Positions 48,317 to 62,161 of a stretch of DNA of 64,000 nucleotides are shown here, piece by piece. Below the pieces are notes generated by a model, which was not told the DNA's origin, made no database searches, and saw only the letters and a list, made by a program, of their open reading frames with translations. Source of the DNA: a virus; IMG/VR virus record IMGVR_UViG_3300042907_001518, positions 1 through 64,000 of that record, one strand, 5' to 3'. How positions within the stretch are numbered: position 1 is the first letter of the stretch; the number at the start of each line of letters is the position of its first letter. The position numbers and the translations under genes are program-made.

Positions 48317-48394
48317 TAACTCCTTGTGGCATAAAGACTTACGACATATTCTCCCCCGCTTTTGCGTCGTAACTCCTTACTGGGCAATGGTTTA
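48317..48394. repeat. Paired-palindrome element 1
   Basis: TAACTCCTT-GTGGCAT-AAAGACTTA, 28-bp linker, TAACTCCTT-ACTGGGC-AATGGTTTA. Confidence 0.9.
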
Positions 48395-48470
48395 CAACAA
48401 ATGTTGAGATACTCAGATTTTTTGCCTGATTTGGCACGCGATTATTTTTTATTTTTTCAAAAGATTTCTC

Positions 48471-48505
48471 TTGCAATCTAAAGAATACTCTGTATAATGC
48501 CGATA
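48471..48505 (+). promoter_or_regulatory. Sigma70-type promoter with GCCGATA box
   Basis: TTGCAA-16-TATAAT, then GCCGATA. Confidence 0.7.
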
Positions 48506-48539
48506 TAAGAAGAAGTAAGAAAGAAAGAAGGATAAGAAA

Positions 48540-48785
48540 ATGGTTTTCGAAACGCTGGACGATCTGAATCACTATATCTCGTATGCTGAACCGGATTCGA
48601 TCAACGGATTCCGAGTTGTTGGTGAATTGTTTGATGACTTGAGAGATACGGCTAACAGGGCTAGGGCTGATTGGTATCCTTTGTGCGATGCCTTCGGTTG
48701 CATGGAAGAGTATATGATGGGAGAAGGTGAGTACCTTGAGATAGATGCGAATGGAGTGATTATTAATTCTAGCGTATACTTCTGA
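48540..48785 (+). CDS. Hypothetical protein
   Basis: Purine-rich leader; follows a promoter. Confidence 0.65.
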   Translation: MVFETLDDLNHYISYAEPDSINGFRVVGELFDDLRDTANRARADWYPLCDAFGCMEEYMMGEGEYLEIDANGVIINSSVYF

Positions 48786-48845
48786 ACAGTATTGACAATC
48801 TAAAAATATTCGGTATAATTCAGACATAAGGAAGAGAGAAAGATA

Positions 48846-48995
48846 ATGACCATCCAAGTACAACACACCATTCGTCGCCTAGTTGCTCGCCACGGATATT
48901 CGGCCACGTTTGTTCAGCATATGGGCGAGGGTATTAGCCTGTACAGTATCGGTGGTATCATGTATCGTATTCGTGGTGATGGTACGATTCTCTAA
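48846..48995 (+). CDS. Small hypothetical protein (49 aa)
   Basis: Promoter TTGACA 48792/TATAAT 48814; stop TAA is the first triplet of element 2. Confidence 0.6.
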   Translation: MTIQVQHTIRRLVARHGYSATFVQHMGEGISLYSIGGIMYRIRGDGTIL

Positions 48996-49070
48996 GTTGT
49001 TACAGCATAAGGGCTTAGGGTAAGGCGGGCGGGCCAAATTCGTCGTAAGTACTTACCACACAACGACTTA
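48993..49070. repeat. Paired-palindrome element 2
   Basis: TAAGTTGTT-ACAGCAT-AAGGGCTTA / TAAGTACTT-ACCACAC-AACGACTTA, 53-bp period. Confidence 0.9.
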
Positions 49071-49201
49071 TGACTACTAAATAATTATTCTATTTGGCAT
49101 GAAATTATATTTGAGAAAATCCAAAGATTTCCCTTGCAATGGTCGATAATATCTGTATAATAAGAGCACAAGAGAAAAGGAAAGAGAAAAAGGAAAAGAA
49201 A

Positions 49202-49399
49202 ATGACAATCGAAGTTTTTGACAATCAGAAGATGACCATCGGATTTGTGAAGAGCCAGAATCAAATTGAAGGAATGAATATGGTTCGCCAGTATTTCCCC
49301 AACGTGGGAAGTGTGGACGGTCAGAGTTACCTTCCGACCAATGATAGCCGTTGCAAGATGATTGTCCCTAATGTTTACTCTTGGGAGATTGTTCGATGA
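49202..49399 (+). CDS. Small hypothetical protein (paralog of 50618-50803)
   Basis: IEVF...TIGFV...FP.V..V...LP..D.RCK.I..NVY.W shared. Confidence 0.7.
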   Translation: MTIEVFDNQKMTIGFVKSQNQIEGMNMVRQYFPNVGSVDGQSYLPTNDSRCKMIVPNVYSWEIVR

Positions 49400-49584
49400 A
49401 TAATCTAGATAAGATTTTCTGTGCTATGCGAAGCGGTAAGTATGGTAGCGTATTAGATACTAAGGGAAATGTTCATGCTGGCATTATCAACTCTATCATG
49501 AAGGAAGATGGTAGCGGTAAGAATTGGATTGTGACGGTATATAATCGCACGGCCAAGAATACGGTTTTCATTCACGCTAAGTAA
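49396..49584 (+). CDS. Small hypothetical protein
   Basis: Start overlaps upstream stop; INSIMKEDGSGKNWIV. Confidence 0.65.
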   Translation: MNNLDKIFCAMRSGKYGSVLDTKGNVHAGIINSIMKEDGSGKNWIVTVYNRTAKNTVFIHAK

Positions 49585-49594
49585 GGGAATATAA

Positions 49595-49702
49595 ATGTTT
49601 GATATTAATATAGATTGGATGTGGATGGGTGTGGGATTTGTTGTTGGCATTGGTTGCTCTTGGCTTGTTTCTGACTTGGTTTTTTCTATAAGGAAGAAGT
49701 AA
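49595..49702 (+). CDS. Very small membrane protein
   Basis: 35 aa, one hydrophobic segment and an RKK tail. Confidence 0.45.
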   Translation: MFDINIDWMWMGVGFVVGIGCSWLVSDLVFSIRKK

Positions 49703-49773
49703 ATGAATAATAATATTCTGTTTGGCATATGCTTTGCTTGTGGTTGTGTGTTGACATATGTTATCTCTTGACG

Positions 49774-59923: not shown

Positions 59924-59976
59924 CTAAAGTTTTAGGATTGACAAGCCGATAAAGATATGGTATACTAGCACACGAT

Positions 59977-60049
59977 GGGCCTTTAGCTCAACTGGCAGAG
60001 CAAGGAGCTTTTAACTCTTAGGTTGTGGGTTCGAGTCCCACAGGGCCCA
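59977..60049 (+). tRNA. tRNA-Lys(TTT)
   Basis: AGGAG-CTTTTAA-CTCTT; own promoter TTGACA 59938/TATACT 59961. Confidence 0.92.
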
Positions 60050-60098
60050 TTGACAGTTTGACCGGTTTGGTGTATAATAGTTTCAAAGGAGAAAGGCA

Positions 60099-60281
60099 AT
60101 GGCACGATATGATGACATCGATTCTTATTATGACCACGGTTATGATTATGACAATATCGCTAGAGACTGCGATGACCTGTATACATGCGACGAGGAATCT
60201 TTTGACGATGACGCTGGCAACGATGAAAACAAGTGGGAAAACTACTACCATAACATAGCAGACGAGTTGATTGAAGAATAA
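60099..60281 (+). CDS. Small acidic protein
   Basis: D/Y-rich; promoter TTGACA-17-TATAAT at 60050-60078; AGGAG RBS. Confidence 0.6.
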   Translation: MARYDDIDSYYDHGYDYDNIARDCDDLYTCDEESFDDDAGNDENKWENYYHNIADELIEE

Positions 60282-60386
60282 GCCTTCTCTTCGGAATGAA
60301 TGCCACTTGGTGGGACAAGTATTTTATAATAAGAATTATCCTTTCTTTCTTTTCTAGTGGTTCGAATCCACCATTCGTTCTTTTTT

Positions 60387-60899
60387 ATGAGTAATATTTT
60401 TAATCAGTCTATTGAGGATGTTCGTAAGACAGTTGATGGAAGATATATCCAAGGTGCTAGCCACACCTGTCATGTACTGAATCATAAGGCTAGAAATAAG
60501 ATTATTATCAAGGCTGTTTGTGATCTAAGAAAAATAGCAGATACTTTTGATAGCATTGCCTGCTGCGGTGTAAGTGGATTGATGGTAGTTCCACAAATCG
60601 CAGAGTTACTCAACAAGAATATTGTTGTGGTAAGAAAGGGGGAACAATGCTATTCAGAGTTTCGTACCGAGGGAGTGGCTCCTTTTCAATATATTATATT
60701 AGACGATTTAATCTGTTCTGGCTCGACCGTTAAACATATTAAAAGAGTTATCAAGGATGAATACTCGCGTTCTCATTGTGTTGGGGTCTATTGCTATCTG
60801 CCTAGTGAATGTGCTTATCGTGACAATAAGGATGGTTCTAAACTGTGCCAGCGAGATCTTGGGATTACGCTCTTAAACCTAGGCCACACAAAGACTTAG
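60387..60899 (+). CDS. Type I phosphoribosyltransferase-like protein
   Basis: PRPP-binding motif YIILDDLICSGST; VVRK loop. Confidence 0.75.
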   Translation: MSNIFNQSIEDVRKTVDGRYIQGASHTCHVLNHKARNKIIIKAVCDLRKIADTFDSIACCGVSGLMVVPQIAELLNKNIVVVRKGEQCYSEFRTEGVAPFQYIILDDLICSGSTVKHIKRVIKDEYSRSHCVGVYCYLPSECAYRDNKDGSKLCQRDLGITLLNLGHTKT

Positions 60900-60951
60900 G
60901 ACTAGGGCGGCCGGCCCGTCAAAACGTAACTCCTTACGCCACAACGACTTA
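60874..60951. repeat. Paired-palindrome element 12
   Basis: TAAACCTAG-GCCACAC-AAAGACTTA / TAACTCCTT-ACGCCAC-AACGACTTA. Confidence 0.88.
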
Positions 60952-61052
60952 CGCCAAAAAATTTTCCCACAAGTTTTCCGCTTGACAAGTCGATAACATA
61001 CTGTAGAATGATAGCATACGAGTGAGAAGTTAACCCACGAAGGAGTTTGATT

Positions 61053-61997
61053 ATGCCTGCTGCTGTTGAAAAGATGATGTTTGTTGGTGAGACGCCTTGG
61101 CATGGCCTTGGAAATAGCGTTGACGAGGGTATCACGGTCAATGATGCTATCGTTGCTGCTGGTTTGGATTGGGAAGTTGGTCTGAAGGACTTGCAGACCG
61201 TTGACGGTACGCCCGTTAACCATCGTGCAACCTATCGCAAGAGTGATGGTAGCATCCTTGGCGTTGTCGGGCCTCGCTATACACCTCTCCAGAATAAGGA
61301 TGCGTTCGATTGGTTCCAGCCTTTCCTTGATGCTAACGAGTGTTCGATCCATACTGCTGGTTCGCTGCATCTGGGTCAAAAGGTTTGGGTGCTTGCTCAA
61401 CTCAACCGCGACAATAGCGAGATTGTTCCGGGTGACGAGGTAAGCAAGTTTATCCTGCTGAGTAATAGCCACGATGGTACAACGGCTATTCGTGTCGGAT
61501 ACACTCCGATTCGTGTTGTGTGCGTGAACACGCTGTCATATGCTCACAAGCATGCGAACAGCCAACTGATTCGTATTCGTCATACTCGCTCCAGCCAGAA
61601 GAATCTGGAACAAGTCCGCGATATTATGGATAATATTAACGCTGGTTTTGAGGCTACTGCGGAACAGTATCGGTTCCTCGCTAGTAAGAGTTTTAACCAG
61701 AATGATATTGAGAAGTATGTTAAGGTTGTGTTGAATATTAAGGGTGCTGATGAGGATATCAAGACTCGTACCCGTAATATTATGGACGATATTCTCGCCC
61801 GTATCGAAGGCCCGAAGCAGACTGCGGCTAATGTTCGCGGTACTTGGTGGGCAGCGTATAATGGGTTCAATGAATATCTGAACTATGGTAAGGGTCGCAC
61901 GACCGACAACCGACTCGATAGCCTCTGGTTCGGCCAGAACGCTAATGAGAATAATAAGGCGTTGGAATCTGCTCTGGAGTTTGCCAACGCTATCTAA
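61053..61997 (+). CDS. DUF932 family (phage/plasmid-like TIGR03299-type) protein
   Basis: TPWHGLG, Y.PLQN, NSHDG, TPIRVVC.NT, GTWWAAYN motifs. Confidence 0.85.
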   Translation: MPAAVEKMMFVGETPWHGLGNSVDEGITVNDAIVAAGLDWEVGLKDLQTVDGTPVNHRATYRKSDGSILGVVGPRYTPLQNKDAFDWFQPFLDANECSIHTAGSLHLGQKVWVLAQLNRDNSEIVPGDEVSKFILLSNSHDGTTAIRVGYTPIRVVCVNTLSYAHKHANSQLIRIRHTRSSQKNLEQVRDIMDNINAGFEATAEQYRFLASKSFNQNDIEKYVKVVLNIKGADEDIKTRTRNIMDDILARIEGPKQTAANVRGTWWAAYNGFNEYLNYGKGRTTDNRLDSLWFGQNANENNKALESALEFANAI

Positions 61998-62020
61998 TAC
62001 TCCTTTCGTGGGGATTGTGG

Positions 62021-62072
62021 GAGAGGGCCGTGGCTGGGAAACCGGCTGCGGCCTTCTCTTTTATTTTTTTTT
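62021..62072 (+). terminator. Rho-independent terminator
   Basis: GAGAGGGCCGTGGCTGG-GAAA-CCGGCTGCGGCCTTCTC followed by T runs. Confidence 0.85.
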
Positions 62073-62083
62073 AAGATTTGACA

Positions 62084-62161
62084 TAAGTACTTACCACATA
62101 AGGACTTACGACACGGCCGGCCCGCAAATTTCGTCCTAAGTTGAGTAGCCACAAGGACTTA
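62084..62161. repeat. Paired-palindrome element 13 (linker apparently inverted)
   Basis: TAAGTACTT-ACCACAT-AAGGACTTA / TAAGTTGAG-TAGCCAC-AAGGACTTA; solo boxes at 62232 and 62932. Confidence 0.88.

Follow-up and report, generated by a model that had tools for sequence, protein, structure and literature searches.

The early region of the phage described here is punctuated by thirteen copies of a twin palindrome, and the question that this locus raises is what such an element does: whether it serves to move genes about, as the sites of integrons and of tyrosine recombinases do, or whether it marks the points at which early transcription units end and begin. The window, that is, the whole stretch of DNA analysed, consists of the first 64,000 nucleotides of IMG/VR virus record IMGVR_UViG_3300042907_001518 (100,501 bp; CheckV completeness 73%; labelled G000 in our comparisons). 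The terminase, the portal, a tape measure protein of 2,435 amino acids and collagen-like tail fibres are encoded on the minus strand of the record. From about 47.4 kb onwards there follows a plus-strand block in which the genes are very small, eight tRNAs are encoded and consensus sigma70-type promoters are numerous, and the elements are found in this block. To our knowledge, nothing is known of early-gene control in large uncultured freshwater phages, though such phages are abundant. As will be seen, the element family points to a switchable, protein-read stop or insulator signal over integron-like gene shuffling.

The thirteen elements all lie on the plus strand, at the positions given in a preliminary description of this DNA: element 1, which has the most degenerate linker, at 48317-48394; element 2 at 48993-49070; element 3 at 49774-49851; element 4 at 50371-50448; element 5 at 51616-51693; element 6 at 52547-52624; element 7 at 53501-53578; element 8 at 55360-55437; element 9 at 56097-56174; element 10 at 56860-56937; element 11, the top match to the family profile, at 58518-58595; element 12 at 60874-60951; and element 13, the last of the array, at 62084-62161. 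Each is 78 bases long and comprises two 25-bp boxes (A and B), the starts of which are exactly 53 bp apart in 13/13 copies. A weight matrix for the single box, run over the whole record, recovers all 26 boxes of the pairs and, in addition, two that stand alone, one at 50508 and a weak one at 62232; beyond the early region (48317-62256) it yields just two marginal matches, and the boxes are thus confined to that region. The linkers had been described as GC-rich and the 7-bp cores as variable, and both descriptions hold: 12 of the 15 G/C runs of at least 9 nt in the whole record, and all four occurrences of GGCCGGCC, fall within the thirteen elements, which make up 1% of its sequence, and the core is different in all 26 boxes.

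Alignment of 561 copies from the wider family allows the anatomy to be refined. Each box is a 37-bp palindrome, T.G.CsTAA..CCTT-N7-AAGGACTTAsG.C.A, the arms of which measure 9-11 bp and enclose 7 bp in all boxes; an element presents four equivalent half-sites. The extended boxes are separated by 16 bp consisting of G and C only (consensus GGCCGGCC), and the dyad of the whole element falls at column 38.5. About 40 bases are conserved over 90 bp, in 8-18 copies per genome. Of about 700 pairs of neighbouring boxes, 680 keep a spacing of 53 bp, which corresponds to five helical turns; 14 have 52 bp and four have 54 bp.

The family is large. An exact pattern for the element matched more than 119 contig stretches, and a profile scan of 204 loci collected 638 unique twin-box elements on approximately 160 related viral contigs; the same scan gave no match in 0.8 Mb of shuffled sequence. 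Conservation at the base level was found in relatives; the preliminary description had taken its lack, together with a lack of protein binding, as refuting function. In complete relatives of 158, 233 and 238 kb a loose pattern search finds at least 9, 16 and 14 elements, respectively, the set of each genome forming one early block of 12-20 kb. The gene for a DUF932 protein, located between elements 12 and 13, has matches on 80 viral contigs at 65-99% identity and provided a landmark common to the loci. No close cultured relative was found: a megablast comparison of the region with 50,697 phage records gave no match, and the terminase and DUF932 proteins led only to distant relatives (at most 46% identity). 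DNA of the phage is present in lake-water metagenomes, whose DNA runs contain 0.8-0.99 of its sequence words; no RNA run is listed as containing it. The element is a feature of an uncultured lake-water phage and of a large uncultured freshwater clade.

What is conserved in these elements is the sequence. In the 561 unique copies, columns carrying the full 2.0 bits (TAA, TT, AA and ACTTA, and TAAGT, TT, AA and TTA) have neighbours near 0, and such jumps in information from one column to the next argue for selection on particular bases and not for decay from a master copy. Whether the columns to be paired lie in the same box (A or B) or one in each, the Watson-Crick fraction in these copies equals that expected from the column frequencies; mutual information between candidate pair columns does not exceed 0.08 bits, with a single exception at 0.12, and the strongest dependencies are between neighbouring columns. 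In a gapless alignment of 76 rows, a two-hairpin model pairs 74.5% of the cells (75.3 ± 0.4 in shuffles) and a long-hairpin model 70.4% (70.8 ± 0.5), and neither model exceeds the shuffles in covariation score. The sense strand of box A places A opposite C, or C opposite A, in most copies. Minimum-energy folds vary among copies, the long-hairpin register being adopted by 34-40% and the box hairpin by 17-30%. Because the palindromic partners do not covary and the folds differ from copy to copy, it is base identity, and not hairpin pairing, that is under selection.

The elements are also polar. With the loci oriented on the DUF932 gene, which replaced strand inference from the longest open reading frame (ORF) as the latter was too noisy, 231 of 242 elements of the window's kind (type 1; a second type is described below) score higher in the direction of the genes, and the other 11 are near ties. 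The first in-frame stop codons peak at columns -5 (TGA), 0 (TAA) and 23 (TAG), from which it follows that the upstream ORFs end at or within box A. In the window, the TAA of box A is the stop codon of ORF 48846-48995 at element 2 and of ORF 55605-56099 at element 9, as had been described; ORF 55112-55366 has its stop codon inside box A of element 8; the ORF upstream of element 12 enters box A and stops at the TAG of the box; and element 10 begins 6 nt past a tRNA-Asp gene. Most others start 0-30 bp past a stop codon or tRNA.

On the 3′ side of box B an A tract comes first and a T tract second, with T richness setting in only about 14 nt later, and where a promoter is recognisable its -35 hexamer lies 20-49 bp past box B in 312 of 426 cases. 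The sigma70-type promoters that had been reported downstream of the window's elements are present, in consensus form, after nearly every one; the module following element 12 (60952-61009, plus strand) may serve as an example, with its A-tract/T-tract and its TTGACA-N16-TAGAAT promoter, a module that is conserved beside elements of both types. Between 47 and 64 kb there are about 20 near-consensus promoters on the plus strand as against one canonical intrinsic terminator (62019-62075, plus strand; a 19-bp stem with a T run), which stands directly 5′ of element 13. A scan for intrinsic terminators found none within the thirteen elements and no stable conserved hairpin directly before a U tract. 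Several promoters have no element in front of them, so that each element closes off a group of between one and three promoter units, and not every promoter is accompanied by one. The boxes themselves were considered as sigma70 promoters and rejected: TTGAC often precedes a box, yet the position expected for the -10 hexamer reads AGGACT.

Two boxes of the window stand alone, both on the plus strand. One, at 50508-50532, is 84 bp past box B of element 4 and 34 bp before the promoter at 50565-50593. The other is the weak box at 62232-62256, starting 7 nt past the -10 hexamer of the promoter at 62197-62225. A solo box resembling type 1 at this promoter, 3′ of the DUF932 gene, is common to type 1, type 2 and distant genomes alike (in relatives at G001:22648, G005:151064, G006:21792, L066:11200 and L085:11197), and it starts 6-16 nt past the -10 hexamer in all of them. 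Placed at a conserved promoter start site, this box appears operator-like, by analogy with the sites of mycobacteriophage-type L5 regulation discussed below.

Genomes G001 and G005-G009 and loci L013-L018 carry a different twin box, which we term type 2, in the same intergenic positions. It is composed of CTGCCAAAATGGCAG, a 14-nt G/C-rich linker and a further CTGCCAAAATGGCAG; the 15-bp boxes are 29 bp apart in 93/95 cases, and the box centre, read in the gene direction, is AAA 94 times and TTT in no case. The DUF932 proteins of the type 2 genomes G001, G005 and G006 are nevertheless 92-97% identical to that of the window. When the slot 5′ of the DUF932 gene is aligned, conserved coding sequence extends up to the last codons of the upstream gene, the element between cannot be aligned, and conservation resumes at the A/T tract and continues through the promoter to the start codon. 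Of the contigs, 159 carry type 1 alone and 16 type 2 alone, and both types meet on a single one. This mixed contig (L024, 4.3 kb) has a type 2 element at 324, after a tRNA, and type 1 elements within 2362-4226, flanking the DUF932 gene, and is either a natural hybrid or a chimeric assembly. A swap of type between near-identical genomes, with one type per genome, argues for a specificity that acts in trans. The G/C word of the linker shifts with lineage as well, for example GGCCGGCC or GGCGGGCC versus CCGCGG. More distant relatives have, in the same slot, a single box beside a G/C-rich piece or an ordinary intrinsic terminator, and in some of them a T run follows the single box immediately; what fills the slot of element 12 depends on the relative: an element of type 2 in some, a single box or an ordinary terminator in others.

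We consider that the elements are polar, protein-bound boundary signals of early transcription units, similar to the stoperators of L5-like phages or to promoter-early stem-loop (PeSL) cassettes, and give this reading a probability of roughly 0.5. The fixed frame of the four equivalent half-sites, the variability of the box centre, the type switch and a conservation of bases that lacks covariation together point to a trans-acting reader that recognises the element base by base, while the polarity, the position at the ends of transcription units, the terminators occupying the slot in distant relatives and the scarcity of other terminators point to a role where transcription leaves one unit and enters the next. 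The preliminary description had offered tandem operators or roadblocks bound by two dimers as one of two options, and it is this option that conservation, spacing, polarity, placement and type switch favour; the binding of a protein, its roadblock or insulator action and the timing of that action are what we infer. In the mechanism envisaged, the two palindromic boxes of 25-37 bp, which flank a G/C-only core at a distance of five helical turns from each other, would be read as duplex DNA by a sequence-specific, probably dimeric and lineage-specific protein, two dimers to an element. The bound element would act in one direction only, stopping or attenuating the RNA polymerase that leaves the upstream cassette, and would insulate, or later silence, the strong promoter 20-50 bp downstream. 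A sequence of about 80 bp repeated at every junction would, in addition, supply the homology for gain and loss of cassettes, with no need of a dedicated recombinase.

Several observations weigh against this reading. The boxes of type 2 are 29 bp apart, or 2.8 turns, which limits the argument from a common helix face to type 1. The first round of early transcription comes too soon to be terminated by a protein that is made only once infection has begun; termination, if required from time zero, must rest on RNA or host factors. The stable long hairpin of type 2 and the T run after some of the distant single boxes would suit a role at the level of RNA, and the presence of the type-1-like solo box in type 2 genomes makes one factor per type too simple a scheme. 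Moreover, presence and absence of genes, determined by tblastn between genomes of type 1 (G000, G002, G003, G004) and type 2 (G001, G005, G006), disclosed no DNA-binding protein linked to type, and no helix-turn-helix or ribbon-helix-helix domain was detected among the small ORFs examined.

Candidates for the reader were sought in the same comparison and by association of genes with element type over 94 loci (62 type 1, 14 type 2 and 18 other). The genes ranked highest for type 2 proved to be spurious ORFs overlapping the elements. Those specific to type 1 encode an acidic peptide of 40 aa (72305-72424), a small membrane protein (63635-63856), a protein of 75 aa (52306-52532), a methyltransferase and an Xre-antitoxin-like protein missing from G000; none of them has a recognised DNA-binding domain or tracks type across the loci. 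Resemblances to the sites of DnaA, IHF, LacI-type regulators, NtrC and PhoB were set aside because spacing or half-sites do not fit.

Of the systems already described, the stoperators of Cluster A (L5-like) phages provide, by analogy, the closest working model. In L5, one type of site, present at promoters and in short intergenic spaces, is active only when oriented with transcription (PMC9283540). The present elements resemble stoperators in that a site is repeated many times, intergenically and at promoters, along the direction of transcription (PMC9283540), and in a site specificity that differs among related phages (PMC9283540, PMC6550527). Stoperators, on the other hand, are single asymmetric sites of 13 bp, read by a monomeric immunity repressor and distributed genome-wide in temperate phages (PMC9283540, PMC6550527), whereas here palindromes of 25-37 bp are paired about a GC core and restricted to the early region, with no integrase; and among the genomes and loci compared no type-linked or DNA-binding candidate for a repressor of the stoperator kind was found.

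The PeSL cassettes of the T4-type phages RB49 and phi1 likewise are repeated intergenic modules of about 100 bp in a hyperplastic early region (PMC2839356). As in PeSLs (PMC2839356), a sigma70-type promoter is combined here with an AT-rich tract and with a sequence able to form a stem-loop, in which a run of G precedes a run of C, and in both cases the modules lie between small accessory ORFs, at the breakpoints of cassette gain and loss. PeSL stem-loops have no constant sequence and no constant place with respect to the promoter (PMC2839356); the present elements differ in being a rigid box pair, 53 or 29 bp apart, conserved in sequence and devoid of pairing covariation, in having interchangeable types in near-identical phages, and in standing always upstream of the promoter. 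Terminator activity and mini-circles were demonstrated for PeSLs, where homologous recombination between the repeated regulatory modules shuffles ORFs (PMC2839356).

The main rival to a protein-read boundary signal, with which it is not mutually exclusive, is a signal at the 3′ end of the early messages themselves. Folded as one long hairpin or two small ones, it would terminate weakly with the help of a factor, stabilise the RNA or mark it for processing, and its invariant bases would contact an RNA-binding protein or a nuclease. We regard this as possible, though only tentatively. It would account for the strict polarity with transcription, for a terminator-like position after stop codons and a tRNA, in which distant relatives hold ordinary terminators, and for the near lack of canonical terminators in the region, and it escapes the difficulty that a protein made by the phage is unable to act in the first minute. 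Type 1 copies fold with a mean energy of -27 kcal/mol, compared with -20 in shuffles, and three of four type 2 elements tested form one stable long hairpin (-23 to -25 kcal/mol, z about -2.4), of which the invariant AAA(A/U) loop resembles an RNA loop contacted by protein; the T run placed at once after some distant single boxes fits as well. The absence of compensatory change in the 561 copies and in the 76-row test is difficult to reconcile with this proposal, as are the A.C and C.A mismatches in the transcribed box A of most copies and the predicted structures that vary from copy to copy. The linker word of type 2 is out of register with the dyad and, in the hairpin register, pairs below chance (166 paired cells against 243 ± 10 in shuffles). 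Ordinary intrinsic terminators, which fill the same slot in distant relatives, have a stable hairpin and an immediate U tract; here it is an A tract that comes directly after the element. Element 13, situated immediately downstream of a full canonical terminator, would hardly be transcribed, and a search of 47000-64000 against Rfam 15 (E up to 0.1) matched tRNAs alone and no family for the elements. Alternatively, the reader might be a regulator or nucleoid protein of the host, exploited by the phage to time, boost or silence early transcription, and the type switch would then reflect a different host or host protein. No phage protein follows element type and host proteins are available from the first minute of infection, both of which speak for such a reader, but we think it improbable. 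Known host operators do not resemble rigidly paired sites of 37 bp. The preliminary description had suggested scanning candidate hosts, and the paired pattern, sought in 596 Gb of species-representative genomes, forms no repeat family on bacterial chromosomes: its 13 matches are misbinned phage contigs in metagenome-assembled genomes (MAGs) or chance matches in a conserved flavobacterial coding gene. This also separates the elements from the REP and BIME families (repetitive extragenic palindromes and bacterial interspersed mosaic elements) of enterobacterial host chromosomes, which resemble them in having pairs of palindromic units around a short linker, in many copies, at the 3′ ends of transcription units. 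The single-box pattern was not enriched, being at or below control, in 400 sampled genomes of one candidate class, a weak test of a host reader; it matched seven of the 400, including the query MAG with its misbinned phage contigs, and a reversed control pattern matched more.

The other option of the preliminary description was that the elements are recombination sites, attC-like or loxP/dif-like, at which self-promoted cassettes are excised or reordered, to which insertion may be added. Much in the architecture invites this view: arms of 9-11 bp around a 7-bp core are the geometry of tyrosine-recombinase sites, and, as with integron attC sites, imperfect palindromes abut the stop codons of cassettes in an array of small accessory genes. 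Homology blocks shared with relatives, too, end preferentially at the elements, with 112 of 410 block ends (27%) no more than 12 bp away from one, as compared with an 8.6% share of the length, an enrichment of about threefold; within intergenic DNA only, 64 of 160 ends lie near elements, against 23.6% of the length. The peaks are sharp at the 5′ and the 3′ edge of the element; insertions of 378-432 bp in relatives end exactly at 56094-56097, the 5′ edge of element 9, and the homology block with L010 ends at 53580, at the 3′ edge of element 7. Repeated promoters, however, are equally involved in such breakpoints, and they and ordinary homologous recombination explain them just as well (PMC2839356); the enrichment fits homology-driven modular exchange of the PeSL kind. 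The window had been reported to encode no recombinase, and the finding extends further, as searches with PF00589 (tyrosine) and PF00239 (serine recombinases), which match 14/14 and 12/14 control genomes, respectively, find none in the whole record or in the complete relatives G001-G004. Core sequences that differ between sites block strand exchange by enzymes of the loxP/dif type; loxP, FRT and dif sites agree with the elements in arm and spacer geometry and differ from them in having identical partner spacers and a cognate recombinase. An attC site preserves its folded single-strand structure and not its sequence, the reverse of what is seen here, it needs the tyrosine recombinase IntI, and the cassettes of integrons are mostly promoterless and served by the common promoter Pc, whereas every cassette here has its own promoter. 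Comparison of gene order with five relatives showed gain and loss of cassettes and no permutation, the order being collinear in all the relatives compared and orthologous elements being vertically inherited. In contigs from four lake-water DNA runs, no reliable joints of excision, circle formation or deletion were present over 47500-63500; the joints seen there have short sides of 20-39 nt, two connect tRNA genes, and none can serve as a junction of excision. Site-specific recombination is thus very unlikely, and we regard as equally improbable a selfish conversion, in which a nuclease of one type would cut the other type in mixed infections and repair would copy the resident element into every slot. 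Clean slot-for-slot replacement would be explained in this way, as would the precise swap of the element alone between conserved flanks beside a protein 92-97% identical, and the mutual exclusion of the types on all contigs but L024; genes for endonucleases of the homing type are present, such as the HNH gene at 59312-59746. No nuclease gene, however, follows element type, position-specific conservation over very divergent phages denotes functional selection on the elements themselves, and conversion would cover the spread of the elements and not their action.

A bolder version of the protein-read boundary signal, which we offer as speculation and think rather doubtful, is that a switchable code silences the early region and that the twin boxes form its cis half. 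A phage protein would read the boxes of its own type, stop the polymerase at the junctions and shut the early promoters, and would also silence superinfecting relatives of the same type. Were this true, competition between co-infecting virulent phages would select for the wholesale exchange of box type (types 1 and 2 and other variants) between near-identical genomes, and a form of heteroimmunity would exist in non-temperate phages of the jumbo range. The stem CUGCC/GGCAG of the type 2 hairpin is shared with the type I-F CRISPR repeat (PMC5344921). Type 2 hairpins serving as abundant early RNA decoys for Cas6f would be RNA anti-CRISPRs, an idea less likely than the silencing code.

Repeated regulatory boundary cassettes in a phage early region are a functional class already known. 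What appears to be new is the rigid twin palindrome with its G/C core, its conservation throughout a clade and its exchange for a second type, none of which was found in the literature searched or in Rfam. A very information-rich cis-signal with hundreds of natural variants marks every boundary of an early transcription unit, and such marks allow the regulatory layout of an entire uncultured clade to be read from its sequence alone. Slot-for-slot replacement of one type by the other amounts to a natural specificity-swap experiment, from which two trans-acting readers, each matched to one type, are predicted. Should the elements prove to be protein-gated terminators or insulators that depend on orientation, synthetic biology would gain compact orthogonal parts. 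The integron-like interpretation, attractive as it is, is unsupported and is corrected by the present analysis.

Several further features of the early region were observed. Many of the early promoters between 48471 and 62221 have the word G(C/T)CGATA in or beside the spacer; its position relative to the -35 hexamer varies, being +4 to +8, or else it abuts the -10 hexamer. A second repeated boundary motif, CCTAATCC-TAC-GGATT..GTGGC..TAGTCAGC(C/G)AAAA, occurs in genomes of both types, between a short ORF or an ORF-less transcript and the next promoter. In the window it is located at 53785-53830, 55586-55628, 62330-62375 and 63530-63575, and in L017 at 3645-3700, 6128-6179, 8846-8901 and 11350-11405. 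The transcript from the promoter at 62197-62225 has an ORF-less leader of about 170 nt that ends in this motif. The motif might represent a transcript end of a different kind or belong to small RNAs. At 55458-55640 and 56216-56304, consensus promoters are followed by 50-130 nt with no credible ORF before the next promoter; these units are candidates for small RNAs or for a basic peptide of 21 amino acids. The translation of 55435-55572 is 91-95% identical to G003 and G004, which is far over the local average.

Among the genes interspersed with the elements, the ORF at 59312-59746, between tRNA genes, encodes 144 amino acids with an N-terminal helix-turn-helix (Pfam HTH_38/HTH_23/GerE) and a Cys/His-rich C-terminal part that we read as HNH-type. 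It is absent from the other genomes compared, save for a weak match in G006, and has the look of a free-standing homing endonuclease. Two paralogues of about 177 amino acids (57740-58270 and G000:88907-89440) display, in translation, kinase-like HxGN and DxG motifs; the copy in the early region is present in 33/62 type 1 loci and 2/14 type 2 loci. Beyond the window, at G000:99574-100434, a protein of 286 amino acids has an N-terminal Mtd_N (major tropism determinant) domain, which hints at a putative target of a diversity-generating retroelement near the end of the record. Lastly, 60294-60380, directly 5′ of a phosphoribosyltransferase-like gene, is a weak match to the tRNA-Sec model (29 bits, below threshold) and is possibly a decayed tRNA.

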